Part shown: positions 1,005 to 9,240 of the stretch, piece by piece
Position numbering within the stretch: the stretch's first letter is position 1
How the letters are laid out: each line of letters opens with the position of its first letter
Assembly: GCF_003334385.1 (NCBI RefSeq)
Contig: NZ_QOWN01000070.1
Source of the DNA: Escherichia coli
GTDB taxonomy: Bacteria > Pseudomonadota > Gammaproteobacteria > Enterobacterales > Enterobacteriaceae
DNA: 9,240 bases
Direction: 5' to 3' (one strand)
Notes under the pieces: generated by a model
Databases searched by the model: none
What the model was told of the DNA's origin: nothing
Seen by the model: only the letters and a program-made list of their open reading frames with translations
Position numbers and translations under genes: made by a program

Positions 1005-1033
1005 ATAATAATCAGATGAAAATCAATAATCAA
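1005..1033 (-). promoter_or_regulatory. Sigma70-like promoter for the tRNA cluster
   Basis: On the minus strand, TTGATT (plus 1028-1033), a 17-nt spacer, then TATTAT (plus 1005-1010), ending about 10 nt upstream of the tRNA 5' end at 994. Overlaps the 3' end of the AraC-like ORF. Confidence 0.35.
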
Positions 1034-1736
1034 GCCCTTGCCTGGATACATATCTGTCTGGCGGGAAGCCATAATAGCGGTGAAATACAGAAATAAAGTA
1101 GGACCTGCTTGAATAACCGCATTTTTCTGCTATAGCCTGTCCATATCCATGCCGGGAACATAACATATTTACAGCAACACGCATCCGCTCTTCCAGCAAC
1201 AAGCGACTGAACATGCCCCCTTCATTTTTCAGTTTTGTCTTTAACAAACTCTCACTCATATGCAACTGTAGAGCAATCGCACCAAGCGTCCAGCTTGCTG
1301 ATATATCTGTCTGAATTATCGCCCTGACTTTGGCACTTATGCTGGATAAACATCCACTTAAAAACAATGACATCCGTTCATCTGTTTCAAACAGAGACAG
1401 GCAGGCCATCATAAGAAACATATCCGTGGCCTCTCCGGAAAATCCCTGGCTGGTAATTAAAGCCGCAGCCAACGCAGGATTGTTGGGTTCCAGCAACAGG
1501 TAAAGCGGAATGTCAGTCAGACGAGTCCTCGTCAGCTTATGCTGACTTTCCAGATATTGACTTACGACGGATTCGCTTATATCGACAATTTTAACTTTGC
1601 CATAATGCATAAGGAAAAGCTCCCTGATGCATTTGGTGGCCAGAACAACTGAGCCTGGCTTAAGTGACAACGTATCCTTTTCAAGAAAAATATTAATTGG
1701 GGAGCAAACCATGATAACTGAACAGACAACAGCCAT
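1023..1736 (-). CDS. AraC/XylS-family transcriptional regulator, YdeO/AppY/GadX-like
   Basis: ORF track, 237 aa, ATG start. The N-terminus MAVVCSVIMVC resembles the M-x-x-VCSV start I recall for YdeO/AppY. The C-terminal region (SESLLKTKLKNEGGMFSRLLLEERMRVA ... IAEKCGYSSRSYFISVFHRYYGFPP) has the pattern of the AraC-family HTH. From memory, not searched. Confidence 0.8.
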   Translation of the reverse strand: MAVVCSVIMVCSPINIFLEKDTLSLKPGSVVLATKCIRELFLMHYGKVKIVDISESVVSQYLESQHKLTRTRLTDIPLYLLLEPNNPALAAALITSQGFSGEATDMFLMMACLSLFETDERMSLFLSGCLSSISAKVRAIIQTDISASWTLGAIALQLHMSESLLKTKLKNEGGMFSRLLLEERMRVAVNMLCSRHGYGQAIAEKCGYSSRSYFISVFHRYYGFPPDRYVSRQGLDY

Positions 1737-2334: not shown

Positions 2335-3510
2335 ATGGATATAACTTGTTTAGAATGTGGCAATGTTCTTGACGACCCAACTGTAGCTTGCGATAAATGC
2401 GGTGCCACGCCTCATGTTGTAGTGCTGGGCAAACAATCGTACTTTCCTATTGGTGCTGTAACAGCAAATCTTGAAAAAAATGATTCAAGAGCATTTGATT
2501 ATCGATTAGGTGAAGTTTGGGATCTAAAAAATGAAGTCACATCTGAATTCATAACCAGAATTGAGAAAAAATTTAGCCGAAAAAACAAATTTCATAACTT
2601 CCTAGACTCAGATCACAACCCTTCATCCATTCCTACGATCCTAAAAAAATACATTAATAAAAATAATGAATTCATTGATTTATCTAGAGCTATAATAGAG
2701 AAGCTTAAACATAATGCTAATAACGAATCGAGAGTTGCCCAACTTCAGGGGGGGAGCGTTGTTTTCATCCACTATAAGTCTACCGAACCAGAGGATTTGG
2801 GGAAACTTCTAATCGTAATGGTTGATAAACAAAGCGCCTATGACTTTGATTCGGATAAGTTGACCCCAACAAGATTAAATCCAATTAATACCGATGCCTT
2901 ACGGCAGGCTGCGATGTTCGATTTAACTTTATTCGAAGCCAGTTATCCAGAAAACAAGGGTGACTCATATGTACATTTCTTGCAAGGTAAATCTAAAAGC
3001 GATTTTTTCAAAGACTCATTAGGTTGCCGACATGATTCGGACAATAAAAGAAGCATTCAGCAATTATTCAGTGCTATAGATATTTTTGCTAGTAAAAACT
3101 CACTCGGTCGTGTACTGCGTGATACTATTGACAATGAAGTTAAATCCTTACTGGAAAAAAAATCAAAAGATAAACACGGAAATAAGTCCGTTAAGATAGA
3201 GGATATTTCAAAAATAATTGACTCATGCCTGACTGATTCACACAAATGTAAGGGAACGTTTGTCGATTTTGTTAATCTTAATGGTTTCCAGATTGACCCT
3301 CAATTTGAACCAACTCCTAAAGCAGCTGAAAGCGCGCTTACAATTGAAGTGGCAGATAACGACAATAATTTTAAGTTGAAAATAATGCGTGGAGCTATTG
3401 GAGACGAAAAGTCAAATAAGCCTGTAATTCTCACTGACAACAAATGCGAAATTGTGATAAAATTGAGTCAGGCAAATTATGATGAACTCAAAAGATATAG
3501 AGACAGCTAA
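2335..3510 (+). CDS. Cassette gene 1: N-terminal zinc-ribbon fused to an NdpA/YejK-like (NA37 family) nucleoid-associated-protein-like domain
   Basis: ORF track, 391 aa. The DNA is AT-rich (about 30% GC on a sampled 60-nt line, versus about 58% on a sampled line in the helicase gene). CxxC-x10-CxxC at C5, C8, C19, C22. The motifs GGSVVFIHY ... LLIVMVD ... AAMFDLTLF ... YVHFLQGKSKSDFFKDSLG match the order and spacing I recall for E. coli YejK (GG-V-LF-HY ... LLVAVL ... ARIDLTEW ... [22 protein letters not shown]). From memory, not verified. Confidence 0.8.
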   Translation: MDITCLECGNVLDDPTVACDKCGATPHVVVLGKQSYFPIGAVTANLEKNDSRAFDYRLGEVWDLKNEVTSEFITRIEKKFSRKNKFHNFLDSDHNPSSIPTILKKYINKNNEFIDLSRAIIEKLKHNANNESRVAQLQGGSVVFIHYKSTEPEDLGKLLIVMVDKQSAYDFDSDKLTPTRLNPINTDALRQAAMFDLTLFEASYPENKGDSYVHFLQGKSKSDFFKDSLGCRHDSDNKRSIQQLFSAIDIFASKNSLGRVLRDTIDNEVKSLLEKKSKDKHGNKSVKIEDISKIIDSCLTDSHKCKGTFVDFVNLNGFQIDPQFEPTPKAAESALTIEVADNDNNFKLKIMRGAIGDEKSNKPVILTDNKCEIVIKLSQANYDELKRYRDS

Positions 3511-3512
3511 TA

Positions 3513-4727
3513 ATGACAATTGCTGATGACTTATCAAGATTAGCGCAGATTATTAACGGAGCCTCAAGCAGAGTTGAGGGCTACTACACTGTCATAAGTC
3601 TTGAAGAAAGCATTGTTATTGTAAATAGTTCTGAAATAATTAGACTGTTACAATCTATAGGTTATAAAAAGGCAACAACCTGCATCGAAAATAATGAAAT
3701 TTGGCTAGATCGCCAAGCTTCATCTTGGGATGACGCTATAATTTATGAGAATGTTGAGTCTTTTTGGTCTAGAGTAAACACCCAAAACGCTCTTCCGAAA
3801 AATTATATCATCGGAACGCCGTTAATACTCCCTACTTCTAAGAATGAAAGCATCGAAAAAATCCATATTTTCTTTATGTGGAAAGATATCCTTTCATTAA
3901 TTGCTGATCATCATAACAGTGACTGCTCTGTCTTATTTTTCACCAATGAAGACAAAAGTTATACAGTCGAACTCACGCATTTTTTACAATATAGCGAGAT
4001 TAATCGCTTATCGAACTCGTCTCTTAAATATGAAATTATAAAGGAGCTTCTCGACACAATAAAAATCAATGATTTACACAAAAGCGAGCGCAAGCTCGTT
4101 ATACGCTCAGCCATAAACGAAGTATTTAAAGCAAATGGTACGTTCAATTTCTTTGACTTGCTTAACTCTACTGAACTCGTCAGGAAAAAATATGATGAAC
4201 TATATGAGATTTACACAAAGAGGTTTTCTGTAAATAAAATTCTTAACGAACTCGATGAGAAAAATCTTGAGTTCACGAGTAAAATTAACGAATTCATATC
4301 ATCTAATCAGACAAAAGCATTGACTATTCCCGGTGCATTAATAGCTGCTGGTGGCTTAGTGAAGGCTAATGAAACAACCGAAGCAATATTGATTATCGCA
4401 GGACTTTGGATGATAAAAAAAGTCAATTACATTTCTATTGAGATATTCAATGAAACATTCGACAACTTACGTTCTCGAGTGGAGTCCGCTTTCGATAAGT
4501 ATTTAAAGTTTGAAGAAAATAAAGAAATCAAAGATAATGCAGATAGTATTAAGAGTAGCATTACAGGTTTGATTGATAAAGCTAAAAAAAGGATGAGAAC
4601 TGTTAAATATCTCGCATCAGCCATGTTTTATGGAGGCCTTATTTACGTTGGATATAAACAGTTCCCAGTCTTTTTTGAAAAATCGGCAGTAAATCTATTT
4701 TATTTTTTATGCCATACTATAAGCTAA
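3513..4727 (+). CDS. Cassette gene 2: predicted membrane-associated protein of unknown function (candidate effector)
   Basis: ORF track, 404 aa. The ATG lies 2 nt after the gene 1 stop, indicating an operon. AT-rich. Hydrophobic segments ALTIPGALIAAGGLV and AILIIAGLWMI (about nt 4318-4420) and the C-terminal YLASAMFYGGLIYVGY (about nt 4608-4680). No catalytic motif recognised. Confidence 0.8.
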   Translation: MTIADDLSRLAQIINGASSRVEGYYTVISLEESIVIVNSSEIIRLLQSIGYKKATTCIENNEIWLDRQASSWDDAIIYENVESFWSRVNTQNALPKNYIIGTPLILPTSKNESIEKIHIFFMWKDILSLIADHHNSDCSVLFFTNEDKSYTVELTHFLQYSEINRLSNSSLKYEIIKELLDTIKINDLHKSERKLVIRSAINEVFKANGTFNFFDLLNSTELVRKKYDELYEIYTKRFSVNKILNELDEKNLEFTSKINEFISSNQTKALTIPGALIAAGGLVKANETTEAILIIAGLWMIKKVNYISIEIFNETFDNLRSRVESAFDKYLKFEENKEIKDNADSIKSSITGLIDKAKKRMRTVKYLASAMFYGGLIYVGYKQFPVFFEKSAVNLFYFLCHTIS

Positions 4728-6121: not shown

Positions 6122-6379
6122 TCACGCAGTAAACTCCTTCACCAGTATTTCAAACTGGCTTACCTGTCCTTCCAGTTCCGCCACGCAATCCACCAGCTCA
6201 TCCACCGCCTTTTGTGTGCGGTGTTTTGCCTGCAGCAGATCACGAAGCGCCGGAGTAAGCTGCTTGCGGAGCGTATCTTTTTTCACGCTCGTTTTTTCCA
6301 TCTGTTCAGCACAACGAAGCATCTCCTGCGCCTGCCGACGAAGTTGTTCCGGTGAAACAGTGATTGTTCTGTTGTTCAA
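6122..6379 (-). CDS. Hypothetical small phage protein (85 aa, predicted helical)
   Basis: ORF track; TTG start overlapping the helicase stop (TTGA), with GGAG about 8 nt upstream; no in-frame ATG until residue 20. Charged, helix-like composition. No family recognised. Confidence 0.45.
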   Translation of the reverse strand: MNNRTITVSPEQLRRQAQEMLRCAEQMEKTSVKKDTLRKQLTPALRDLLQAKHRTQKAVDELVDCVAELEGQVSQFEILVKEFTA

Positions 6380-7776
6380 AATAAACGCTCCGTTTTACTG
6401 CCCGACATGCGGTTATTGCTGTATCTGCGCGGATTGCCCGGCGTCATGGGTGTGGAAAGAACCCGGGCACTCTCCTGGTCCACAGGCAGAAAATGTCCGT
6501 TATGAAAACGCCGGTAAATGGTCCCGAGCGTGCCATTACGCTGTTTCGTGATGTTGATTTCTGCTATGCCTCTGGCCTGAGTTTCCGGGTTGTATACCTC
6601 ATCCCTGTAAAGCATCAGAATGATGTCGGCATCCGCCTCGATTTCCCCGGAGTTTTTCAGGTCCGAGTTCATTGGGCGTTTATTGGGTCTGGATTCCACG
6701 CCGCGGGAGAGCTGGCTCAGAGCAATCAGCGGAAAACCGCCGGATTTTGCCAGGCTTTTAAGTCCCTTTGAGATTTCCCCCACCGCAAGGTCGTGACGCC
6801 CCGTGCTGCGGGTTTTAATCAGGCCGAGGTAATCGACCACCACCAGCGCCGTTTCCGGGTGTTTCATCCGGTGGTGCTTCGTGGTTGCACATATCTCATC
6901 AATGGTCAGGTTTGCCTGGTCCACCATCCAGATATTACGCCCCGTCATTCGTCCCACGCCCTGCGAGAAACGCGCCCAGTCTTCATCTTCAAAACGGGCA
7001 ACAGACTTAAGACGGGATACCGGCATTCCACCGGCAGCAGACACCATACGTTCACCAATCTGGATGTTCGCCATCTCCATGGTGAACAGAAGCACGCCAT
7101 GCCCCTGCTCAGTCACCTTGTCGATGATGTCCAGCGCAAGTTCGGTTTTCCCCATCGAAGGACGGGCGGCAATGAATACCAGGTCTCCGGGCTCCATACC
7201 GCCCGTTTTTGCGTCCAGTTCATCAATACCGGTCATCAGCGCCCTGGATTTCTCCAGTCCCTGATTGCGGCATTCAACACGGTCGACCACTTCCGGAAGG
7301 ACATCATCAATGTGAACCGGCTGAATGACGCCCTTTCCGGTCGACAGTGAGGCCATCATGTTCTGCACATCCTTCAGGGCATCCTCGGCTGCTTCACAGG
7401 TATACGCATCACGTAAATTCTGTAATGCTTCAGTCAGTGTTTTTTCTGCATCGCGCAGTGCGGCATTGCGCCGCAACGCTGCGACATAGTGCTCCAGTGA
7501 AGACTTCACCCAGGTTTTGCGTCCGGTGTCGGTAATCACCGGGGCAAGTTCCGGCATCTCATTGCACAGCAGTACGGGGTCAATGACGCCGGATATGCGA
7601 GCCTGTCTGCAAATCCCCGCGTAAATATCCCGGTACTGACGCACAAAAAATACATCCGCCGGAAGTGTGGCCAGAATATCCATCACTTCCGGATCGGCCC
7701 CACGCAGAAAAAACGCACCGATGACAGCGCCTTCCAGGTCATCGTTACGCCATGCCGGGGTGTTCTGGCTGGTCAT
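6376..7776 (-). CDS. DnaB-family replicative DNA helicase (phage-encoded)
   Basis: ORF track, 466 aa, ATG start with GGAGGTG 7 nt upstream. Walker A ARPSMGKT, and the block ALSQLSRGVESRPNKRPMNSDLKNSGEIEADADIILMLYRDEVY closely parallels E. coli DnaB ([44 protein letters not shown]). Confidence 0.9.
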   Translation of the reverse strand: MTSQNTPAWRNDDLEGAVIGAFFLRGADPEVMDILATLPADVFFVRQYRDIYAGICRQARISGVIDPVLLCNEMPELAPVITDTGRKTWVKSSLEHYVAALRRNAALRDAEKTLTEALQNLRDAYTCEAAEDALKDVQNMMASLSTGKGVIQPVHIDDVLPEVVDRVECRNQGLEKSRALMTGIDELDAKTGGMEPGDLVFIAARPSMGKTELALDIIDKVTEQGHGVLLFTMEMANIQIGERMVSAAGGMPVSRLKSVARFEDEDWARFSQGVGRMTGRNIWMVDQANLTIDEICATTKHHRMKHPETALVVVDYLGLIKTRSTGRHDLAVGEISKGLKSLAKSGGFPLIALSQLSRGVESRPNKRPMNSDLKNSGEIEADADIILMLYRDEVYNPETQARGIAEINITKQRNGTLGTIYRRFHNGHFLPVDQESARVLSTPMTPGNPRRYSNNRMSGSKTERLF

Positions 7777-8672
7777 GCGGCAACACCTCCGATACGAGAA
7801 CGGTAGCTGGGCCAGTTAAACGACAACCAGTTGCGCCCGTCATCGGTGATCCTGTCGGCAATCCGGGGACTGATGAACGCCCACAATTCTTCCGGTGAAA
7901 GATTGCTGATCAAGATAGTTGGCAAAATACCCTCATACCGGGCATTGATAATTTCCTGCAAAATGGCCATTTCAGCCGCACTGCCAAACTGAACGCCGAC
8001 TTCGTCGACAATCAGCAAATCCAGTGACGCATAATGCTCAATGACGTCATCCGCTGTTTTTTCACTGTCATTCCGCCAGCAGTTTTTCACAGCCCGGGTA
8101 AGGCGCATCACGTCGGTGATCTCCACACTGGCCAGATAGTTACGGATGATGTGTTTTGCCATTGATACCGCCAGATGATTTTTCCCGGTACCGCAACTGC
8201 CGGTCATAACAAGACTGGTACCGTTCTCCAGCATATCTGGCCAGTTCTCCGCATAGCGGCGACAGGCCGCAAGATTTCTGGCTGCGTCAGGATTAACCTC
8301 CAGATAATTATCAAACTCGCAGTCCCGAAAACGCAGAGCAATTCCGGCGTTATCAGTCAGTTCTTCCGCCTTGAGGGACGACAGTTCCATGGTCAAATCA
8401 CTGGCCTCAGCGATCAAGCAGTCAGGGCAGCATGAAATTTTTTCTCTGTCCTCGCCATTACGATCGATCCACACCAGTATATGCGTACGATATTTACCGT
8501 GTTTTTCGCAATATCCGCGACCTTCACGCATCAGGCAGGAACGATAAGGCCATGGCTTTTCGCCCTTCTGAGCAAATGCAATCTCTGCCCGTAACTCATC
8601 CATTTCTGCCCGTAAATCATCCATTCGCGCCTGTAGTCTTGTTTGTTTCTCACGTTGGTCAATCGTCATCAT
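7773..8672 (-). CDS. DnaC-like helicase loader (AAA+ ATPase)
   Basis: The ORF track calls 7773..8681 from a GTG. I prefer the ATG at 8670-8672, with GAGGTGA about 5 nt upstream. Walker A GSCGTGKNHLA, Walker B LLIVDEVG, and C-terminal FNWPSYRSR (E. coli DnaC has FNWDSYRSR). The stop overlaps the helicase start (ATGA). Confidence 0.85.
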   Translation of the reverse strand: MMTIDQREKQTRLQARMDDLRAEMDELRAEIAFAQKGEKPWPYRSCLMREGRGYCEKHGKYRTHILVWIDRNGEDREKISCCPDCLIAEASDLTMELSSLKAEELTDNAGIALRFRDCEFDNYLEVNPDAARNLAACRRYAENWPDMLENGTSLVMTGSCGTGKNHLAVSMAKHIIRNYLASVEITDVMRLTRAVKNCWRNDSEKTADDVIEHYASLDLLIVDEVGVQFGSAAEMAILQEIINARYEGILPTILISNLSPEELWAFISPRIADRITDDGRNWLSFNWPSYRSRIGGVAA

Positions 8673-8682
8673 CGCTGTCACC

Positions 8683-9240
8683 TCAGAATGTCAATTTGTT
8701 ACTGGATTTACCAAATTTGTCAGACATGGCTCCCAGGCCAGCCAGGACATCGACCTGTCGCTGTCGCCCACCTCCGTGAGCGGCTGGCTGTTGCCAGTAA
8801 TCTTCGAAGTGACGATCGGGTCCAAAGAACGTCGCAGCCTGCTTCACGAACTGTGTGCCGGTATTTCCTGTAGCACGTACCCAGGCGGCATACCGCTTCA
8901 CGCCATCAAGCATGGTCTCCGGTTTTATTCCCTCCCTGATACGGGCTTTCCAGGCTTTGAAGGCTGCTGACTTGGAATTGCCACCAGCACGTTTGGGATA
9001 TTCCTGCCAGGCCTGTTCAAATTCCGGTGAATATTCCTGTCTGGCAGAACGCGCTGGTGCAGACGCGTCAGCGGATGCGCCAATAGTGTTTTTAGTCTCC
9101 GTTGTAATCTCTGTAGTAATCTCTGTATTTGTATCAACATTCGGCGTATCCCCTGTTCCGTTACGACGTCGGGGGGTGTTCCGTTTTAACGTAATAGCTG
9201 TATCGCTGATTGCATTATTGCTGTTACTTTCTGGCGAAAC
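8683..9240 (-). CDS. Phage replication initiator (O-like replisome organiser), C-terminal part; 5' end lies beyond the window
   Basis: I translated the minus strand by hand from 9240 down to the stop at 8683-8685 and found no in-frame stop. The track's 76-aa ORF (8683..8913) is the tail of this frame. The C-terminal sequence EFEQAWQEYPKRAGGNSKSAAFKAWKARIREGIKPETMLDGVKRYAAWVRATG...FFGPDRHFEDYWQQP resembles the conserved C-terminal domain of lambdoid replication proteins. It sits immediately upstream of the DnaC-like gene. Confidence 0.7.
   Translation of the reverse strand, partial: VSPESNSNNAISDTAITLKRNTPRRRNGTGDTPNVDTNTEITTEITTETKNTIGASADASAPARSARQEYSPEFEQAWQEYPKRAGGNSKSAAFKAWKARIREGIKPETMLDGVKRYAAWVRATGNTGTQFVKQAATFFGPDRHFEDYWQQPAAHGGGRQRQVDVLAGLGAMSDKFGKSSNKLTF
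9104..9127. repeat. Perfect tandem 12-mer (GTAATCTCTGTA x2) inside the O-like gene; candidate iterons
   Basis: 9104-9115 is identical to 9116-9127, with partial copies on both flanks. A 9-mer TGTTCCGTT also recurs at 9155-9163 and 9177-9185. The tandem encodes the TEITTEITTE linker on the minus strand. Confidence 0.55.

Follow-up and report, generated by a model that had tools for sequence, protein, structure and literature searches.

A probable replication origin inside the initiator gene of an Escherichia coli prophage, with a 12-mer array conserved as DNA across phyla

Tandem repeats within the coding sequence of a replication initiator pose a simple question: do they serve the protein, as a repetitive linker between two domains, or do they serve the DNA, as an origin of replication placed inside the gene of its own initiator? 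We address this question for a prophage locus at the end of a 9,240-nt stretch of E. coli DNA (NCBI RefSeq assembly GCF_003334385.1, contig NZ_QOWN01000070.1), the whole of which is referred to here as the window. An initial annotation of this DNA had proposed origin iterons within an O-like initiator gene, as in lambdoid phages, and had given a simple peptide-repeat linker as the alternative. Taken alone, the 2.7 copies of a 12-mer and the two copies of a 9-mer found here are weak evidence, and their significance comes from comparison with related sequences. On the basis of these comparisons, window positions 9088 to 9202 are probably the replication origin of the prophage, lying inside its own initiator gene, and both repeat types within it are features of the DNA rather than of the encoded peptide.

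Initiator gene and neighboring genes

The initiator, loader, and helicase genes are all encoded on the minus strand (Table 1). Extension upstream, which the initial annotation had suggested as a way to see the whole initiator gene, was possible in E. coli prophages that are 98.9% identical to the window, where the gene is 993 nt long and encodes 330 residues (8683 to 9675 in window coordinates); its upstream half, outside the window, was read only from these near-identical prophages. The identity refers to window positions 8600 to 9240 compared with prophages in E. coli chromosomes, and matches to this segment are present in 480 of 5426 complete genomes. The protein belongs to PHROG 270, "replication initiation protein" (E 3e-77). 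Pfam searches returned no domain, none below E 0.1, and in particular no Phage_rep_O, and PDB sequence searches gave no matches.

Residues 1 to 140 form an N-terminal domain with a confident winged-helix model (pLDDT 93.7), which gives equally good scores against generic winged-helix regulators. The conserved C-terminal domain begins near residue 205, and the structural likeness of this part to DnaD scores below a convincing level. The repeats fall at approximately codons 158 to 196 of the 330, that is, in the interdomain linker to which they had initially been assigned; the span first given for them, 9091 to 9185, equates to approximately codons 164 to 195. Judged from these family assignments, the initiator is O-like in architecture only and stands outside the family of lambda O, given its lack of a Pfam domain and its placement in PHROG 270 as opposed to PHROG 277 for lambda O; the two proteins have in common only a weak match to PHROG 391.

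The loader gene directly downstream matches PHROG 50 (E 3e-87), with NCBIfam DnaC-type matches that are under their cut-offs, and is annotated in RefSeq as "ATP-binding protein." Near its 5' end, a 21-bp tandem duplication (8584 to 8625; TRF score 77) is in frame and gives rise to a repeated heptad, MDDLRAE/MDELRAE.

Table 1. Features of the initiator locus in the window
Feature	Position	Strand	Remarks
Replication initiator gene, 3' part (approximately codons 146 to 330)	8683..9240	-	Translation; gene cut by window end
DnaC-like helicase loader gene	7773..8681	-	Directly downstream of initiator; presumed origin-complex partner
DnaB-family replicative helicase gene	6376..7776	-	TIGR00665 (E 6e-92), PHROG 19 (E 4e-115); presumed origin-complex partner
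AT-rich 12-mer array, TACAGAGATTAC TACAGAGATTAC AACGGAGACTAA AAAC (sense)	9088..9127	-	Encodes TEITTEITTETKN; proposed unwinding/helicase-loading tract
Spacer between iteron 2 and array	9128..9149	-	About one iteron period, no recognizable repeat
Candidate iteron 2 core, ACGTCGTAACGGAACA (sense)	9154..9169	-	Starts 23 nt after iteron 1; read as R-R-N-G-T
Candidate iteron 1 core, ACGTTAAAACGGAACA (sense)	9177..9192	-	Dyad arms ACGTT/AACGg; read as T-L-K-R-N
Extra 12-mer-like copy, TACAGCTATTAC (sense)	9191..9202	-	10/12 identical; on the other side of the iterons

Repeat elements of the linker

Two types of repeat are found in the linker. The first is the perfect tandem 12-mer previously noted at 9104 to 9127, which is borne out as two copies of GTAATCTCTGTA and which TRF reports as 2.7 copies of period 12 over 9096 to 9127 (score 50). 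Two more copies that resemble the 12-mer are present, a degenerate one recognized by eye at 9092 to 9103 and another beyond the second repeat type (Table 1). Allowing at most two mismatches, the 12-mer has six matches in the window against 0.40 expected. No part of the gene is richer in AT than the array (GC 0.32), and a duplex-stability scan that ran from the helicase gene to 600 bp upstream of the initiator found the least stable 40-bp duplex at 9102 to 9142 (ΔG -45.8 kcal/mol; gene mean -57.7, sd 4.1).

The second repeat type is the 9-mer TGTTCCGTT, which occurs exactly twice, at 9154 to 9162 and 9177 to 9185 (0.10 copies expected; none of 200 shuffles reaches two). The latter copy is where the initial annotation had put it, and the former lies one base away from the 9155 to 9163 originally given. 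Each copy extends to a 16-mer of the pattern ACGTYnnAACGGAACA, with dyad arms ACGTY/AACGG and a start-to-start distance of 23 nt (Table 1). Since 23 is not a multiple of three, the two copies are read in different frames, as TLKRN and RRNGT, and the repeat therefore lies in the DNA and not in the protein. In iteron 2, the window allele has CGT where most alleles have CAT, a change located between the dyad arms, in the central spacer that is free to vary. The core dyad pattern by itself is nonsignificant in the window, with two matches against 0.73 expected and 30 of 200 shuffles reaching two.

Homologues were retrieved from genome contigs with the N-terminal domain, taking one genome per species, which gave 80 loci, 78 of them distinct; a scan of viral contigs with the N-terminal alignment recovered near-identical E. 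coli prophages only, and the diversity came from the genome-contig scan. In a subset of the homologues retrieved by the N-terminal domain alone, we find a family of iteron-like units that approximate ACCCTCCYACGTTnnAACGTAAC, with a core dyad ACGTT-nn-AACGT, present in two to six copies at a period of 22 to 23 bp and in all three reading frames. This family accompanies a homologous N-terminal domain in Yersinia, Xenorhabdus, Acinetobacter, Sporosarcina, Caldanaerobacter, and an Atribacteria genome; an Acinetobacter phage with an N-terminal domain 46% identical to that of the window has three copies at 23 bp. The window has only two recognizable units. The distance from the start of the last iteron to the array is 43 nt here and in one other locus (L099), as opposed to 21 nt in most relatives, and thus one unit seems to have decayed, which is probably what the spacer at 9128 to 9149 represents. 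From these sequence patterns, the 16-mers at 23-bp spacing are likely to be iterons that travel with this N-terminal domain.

Might the repeats have no function as DNA and simply supply the coding sequence of a flexible, repetitive linker in the protein? In favor of this reading, the 12-mer keeps to the reading frame and specifies a hydrophilic T/E-rich stretch that is typical of disordered linkers, and its copy number varies freely, with one, two, three, or four copies among near-identical E. coli alleles of the class to which the window belongs (class A, below). Against this, the 16-mer spacing of 23 nt gives different peptides, and the linker is the least variable part of the gene among the E. 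coli alleles, with four variable sites in nt 481 to 600 compared with two to 10 (mostly four to eight) variable sites per 30 nt in the N-terminal domain; the 12-mer copies themselves carry no substitutions. The comparisons of the array across species, described below, also weigh against a peptide-only role, which we consider very improbable.

Co-variation of the repeats with the N-terminal domain

To place the 23-bp repeats in the context of other array-bearing initiators, we grouped N-terminal domains into clusters at ≥50% identity, single linkage at E < 1e-6 being too coarse (two groups). Other N-terminal clusters carry different 9-mers with the same 23-bp period (GAGGTCAAA, GGGAAACCC, TGCGGAAAA, AACCGGTCG, and TCCTACAAA). 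In a set of 154 distinct array-bearing genes, the 190 nt ahead of the array contain three or more copies of some 9-mer in 129 cases, and in 84 there are two or more spacings of 22 to 24 bp, a number reached by none of 153 N-terminal coding segments and none of 152 downstream segments used as controls. The commonest repeat spacing in these genes is 23 (189 cases), followed by 22 (60 cases). The 23-bp repeats thus co-vary with the N-terminal domain, and the common layout is that of a DNA-binding domain, several domain-specific 23-bp repeats, the array approximately 20 nt later, and the C-terminal domain.

The E. coli prophages in our set (L005 to L084, from IMG/VR) make this modularity explicit, as a single C-terminal domain (95 to 100% identical) occurs in combination with no fewer than five unrelated N-terminal classes, with the junctions at the array or just past it. 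The array is found in class A, which includes the window, in class C, found in Stx phages, and in class E, each with its own upstream repeats; those of class C are of the GGGAAACCC type and those of class E are GTGGAAACCCCGCAAAC, both at 23 bp. Homology between the window initiator and the Stx-phage initiators stops exactly at the array, at window position 9126. In classes B and D, the C-terminal domain and the downstream loader gene are the same but the array is missing; class D carries a different tandem 12-mer, GAACCAGTCAAW, at that point, and a repeated AAAACATGAACC is found in class B. Because these two classes use the same loader, the array cannot be essential to that loader and helicase, and we therefore reject the phage loader or helicase as the factor that reads it.

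These findings also bear on the proposal that the tandem 12-mers are themselves the initiator-binding iterons. In its favor, the tandem of 12-mers is perfect and suitably placed within the gene, and 12-mer-like copies lie on both sides of the 16-mers. The same array is, however, attached to at least three E. coli prophage N-terminal classes and to many others elsewhere, each of which has its own 23-bp repeats; a 12-bp period would place successive sites on different faces of the helix, unlike a period of 22 to 23 bp; and a copy number that ranges from one to four among near-identical alleles also speaks against it. We regard this proposal as distinctly improbable. The initial description of the repeats as candidate iterons is thus retained for the 9-mer, which is really a 16-mer, and is given up for the 12-mer tandem, which is shared by unrelated N-terminal domains.

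Conservation of the 12-mer array

In the 78 species, the core ACAGAGAWTAC (at most one mismatch) has 145 matches in the linker zone and, counting both strands, 12 outside it, corresponding to 3.46 matches per kb in linkers and 0.026 per kb elsewhere, a 134-fold enrichment. The linker matches are not confined to one reading frame: 118 are read as T-E-x-T, 26 are in the next frame (Y-R-D-Y), and one is in the third, such that 27 of 145 (18%) are off-frame. We then asked which codons specify the TExT motifs, defined from the peptide alone (n = 86). The Glu codon is GAG in 75 of 86 (87%) compared with 369 of 945 in the rest of the genes (p 1e-18), and the first Thr is ACA in 81 of 86 (94%; p 2e-27). 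The codon for x is AAT in 35 cases and AAC in four, or ATT in 28 and ATC in one, and the third base of the last codon is free. As a control, in the same genes the synonymous codons of the most conserved peptide motif, [IL]LS[DE]I[VI]YW, are fully scrambled.

The array also exists outside any initiator reading frame. In the 8.4-kb Bacillus velezensis plasmid pBamNAU-B3a (NC_022531.1), positions 7282 to 7380 contain three CCTACAGGGAAA repeats, spaced by 23 and 22, followed 19 nt later by three copies of ACAGAGATTAC, and this module is noncoding. Taken together, the fixed synonymous sites, the use of a second frame, and the noncoding plasmid copy indicate that the array is selected as nucleic acid. 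The simple peptide-repeat linker offered at the outset is contradicted by these same three observations, together with the 23-nt period of the second repeat type. The plasmid is a small rolling-circle replicon that encodes no matching initiator, and its module might serve as an origin decoy directed at a phage or might allow a phage to replicate the plasmid. Two other small Bacillus plasmids (H213 and H215) also have the array.

A DNA pattern of two adjacent copies is found in more than 120 viral contigs at the least. Among the matches listed, almost all lie in initiator linkers, and the array-bearing initiators vary in both their N- and C-terminal domains and come from Gram-negative and Gram-positive hosts. 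Isolated phages with the array include those of Acinetobacter, Bacillus, Klebsiella, Staphylococcus, Escherichia, Erwinia, Synechococcus, Burkholderia, Lactobacillus, Vibrio, and Xanthomonas. The array is also present in plasmid records, many of approximately 40 to 60 kb, where the gene beneath it encodes a DnaD-domain protein, a replication protein, or a "conserved phage C-terminal domain" protein. In the literature that we searched, in which older phage papers are thinly covered, we found no account of a cross-phylum 12-mer array or of a strict 23-bp layout.

One further match, in contig L088 (approximately 1480 to 1620, minus strand), was set aside. Here, an array, ATACAGAGATTACAACAGAGACTAC, lies between genes for a DNA-ejection protein and an integrase and is possibly a chance match; by our estimate, the collection searched should hold one or two chance matches to 18 specified bases. 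A DnaA-box-like palindrome, GACAGTGGATAACTGTC, is found upstream of it.

Comparison with known origins

In-gene iterons with an adjacent AT-rich tract are a textbook kind of origin, to which this locus adds a member in an initiator family other than that of lambda O. The lambda origin sits in the middle of O, and two iterons plus the AT-rich tract suffice for unwinding and for replication in vitro (PMC7466680). As in the window, dyad-containing repeats approximately 20 to 24 bp apart are followed, in the sense direction, by an AT-rich tract; the annotated lambda iterons are spaced by 20, 24, and 23 bp, and the tract, ACAAAAGACACTATTACAAAAGAAAAAAGAAAAGATTATTCGTCAGAGAATTC, lies in the same direction. 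The division of labor is also alike, with the N-terminal part of the lambda protein giving origin specificity and the C-terminal part recruiting the helicase system. There are differences, in that the window has two recognizable iterons and lambda has four, and the window initiator is accompanied by a DnaC-like loader and the phage's own DnaB-like helicase, whereas lambda uses P and the host DnaB. The tandem 12-mer of the window is matched only loosely by the lambda tract, which contains loose copies of the core (e.g., TCAGAGAATTC, 9/11). The initial assignment of a lambdoid-type, in-gene origin is hence supported by the anatomy of the locus and by the broad comparison, with the qualification that the likeness to O extends to architecture only.

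A more direct alignment of the two tracts comes from an array-bearing initiator that shares the C-terminal domain of lambda O (39% identity, E 4e-25). The array lies 17 residues, and the lambda AT-rich tract nine residues, before the shared C-terminal homology, and the array thus occupies a position equivalent to that of the lambda tract. By analogy, the 12-mer tandem more likely corresponds to the AT-rich unwinding tract of lambda than to its iterons.

The record of lambda marks two recombination points inside the AT-rich tract (39157 to 39166; positions 558 to 567 of our locus L365), at a loose copy of the core, TCGTCAGAGAATTC, a position compatible with crossing-over between the two halves of initiators in this tract. 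This brings up the possibility that the array is mainly shared homology at a module boundary, where N- and C-terminal parts are swapped, or that it acts at the level of RNA, for example as a translational pause that favors binding in cis. Besides the lambda recombination points, the exact end of window and Stx-phage homology at 9126 and the many existing combinations of N- and C-terminal domains fit an exchange site; crossover accounts for mosaicism, however, and not for purifying selection across phyla. As to RNA, the array region has no RNA structure (z 0.10), no Rfam family, and no promoter or terminator pattern, and a codon-specific pause is made less likely by the preservation of the array in another frame as well. 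We consider an explanation mainly in terms of exchange or RNA unlikely.

Origins of comparable anatomy are known beyond lambda. In Bacillus phage SPP1, oriL, with its repeats and AT-rich unwinding element, lies within gene 38 (PMC6316719). As in the window, the element is in the linker of an initiator gene (encoding G38P), with direct repeats and then an AT-rich element, an arrangement experimentally validated in SPP1, and genes for a loader and a DnaB-type helicase follow. G38P and the window protein both match PHROG 428 and PHROG 1701. The SPP1 repeats and AT-rich sequence are different ones (GAAAAAGACAC; AACAATGATAAC...), and the ACAGAGAWTAC array is absent. In pSK41, the origin is central in rep, and the encoded linker peptide is dispensable when the protein is supplied in trans (PMC5703833). 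Its Rep (RepA_N) belongs to a Gram-positive plasmid system with other repeats and no detectable sequence similarity to the window protein. In Lactococcus phage TP901-1, the rep gene (ORF13) carries two TTTTCCAGATGTGG repeats and then a stretch of very high AT content within the linker of a DnaD-like initiator, which is marked as "experimental" in the TP901-1 record. The repeats are said, from work by Ostergaard and colleagues in 2001, to be needed for replication. The TP901-1 element bears only a loose resemblance to the 12-mer array.

Finally, the DnaD recognition element (DRE) of Bacillus subtilis oriC is a sequence-specific single-strand element in the unwinding region that is read by a DnaD-type protein (PMC10201434). 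The DRE belongs to a chromosomal origin and consists of TnnT pairs with flexible spacing, which differs from the 12-mer tandem of the window. By analogy, the DRE is a possible model for why the sequence of the array is conserved.

Proposed mechanism and significance

We propose the following sequence of events at the window origin. Dimers of the N-terminal winged-helix domain would bind the two dyad-containing iterons, and the resulting initiator–iteron complex would destabilize the adjacent AT-rich 12-mer array. The C-terminal domain would then recruit the phage DnaC-like loader and DnaB-like helicase, whose genes lie immediately downstream, for loading of the helicase onto the opened array. 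On this view, the peptide of the linker (...TLKRNTPRRRNGTG...TEITTEITTET...) would be largely a by-product of translating the origin.

An unwinding function does not by itself account for all features of the array. The fixed G, that is, GAG where GAA would be synonymous, means that plain AT-richness is insufficient and points to sequence-specific recognition beyond the unwinding model, and the identity of the motif across phyla is equally unexplained by plain meltability. We therefore put forward, tentatively and at somewhat less than even confidence, that the 12-mer array is a new sequence-specific origin element, probably recognized in single-stranded form by some conserved part of the initiation machinery, and that it serves in addition as an exchange joint for modules. 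On the same tentative reading, the element would be common to the origins of phages, prophages, and phage-plasmids, from Proteobacteria to Firmicutes, cyanobacteria, and Chloroflexi.

A related reading, in which the iterons mark the origin and the array, as more than an easily melted tract, is recognized by a factor that many bacteria or all of these initiators have in common, is possible, if doubtful. Candidates, to which as a group we attach the same doubtful standing, are a single-strand site for the DnaD-like C-terminal part (compare the DRE), a priming site, and a helicase-entry site. The fixed G and the cross-phylum motif favor a reader of this kind; on the other side, N- and C-terminal domains as well as loader types differ among array-bearing initiators, and classes B and D, which lack the array, share their C-terminal domain and loader with the array-bearing ones. 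For a DnaD-like reader in particular, the subthreshold structural link to DnaD counts against it, and TnnT is too short for sequence-based testing.

For the window, the result gives the origin of this prophage a probable place and separates its specificity elements from a generic one. The recurrence of the layout in a very large and diverse set of phage initiators provides a simple sequence rule for the prediction of phage and prophage origins and helps to explain how initiators come to be mosaic. It also prompts one to ask what factor recognizes a 12-mer retained from E. coli through to clostridia.

Other features of the window

Beyond the Q-like gene, window positions 2335 to 4727 (plus strand) encode a two-gene anti-phage system of the "DS1" type, identified by matches to NF053868 (nucleoid-associated anti-phage protein; 451 bits against a cut-off of 330) and NF053869 (375 against 315); the system was not detected by PADLOC v2. 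In the near-identical prophage L001, a WYL-domain gene is found past the Q gene instead of the DS1 system. Adjoining the defense genes of the window is a gene for an AraC-family regulator (1023 to 1736, minus strand) that resembles YdeO/GadX, with scores under the family cut-offs.
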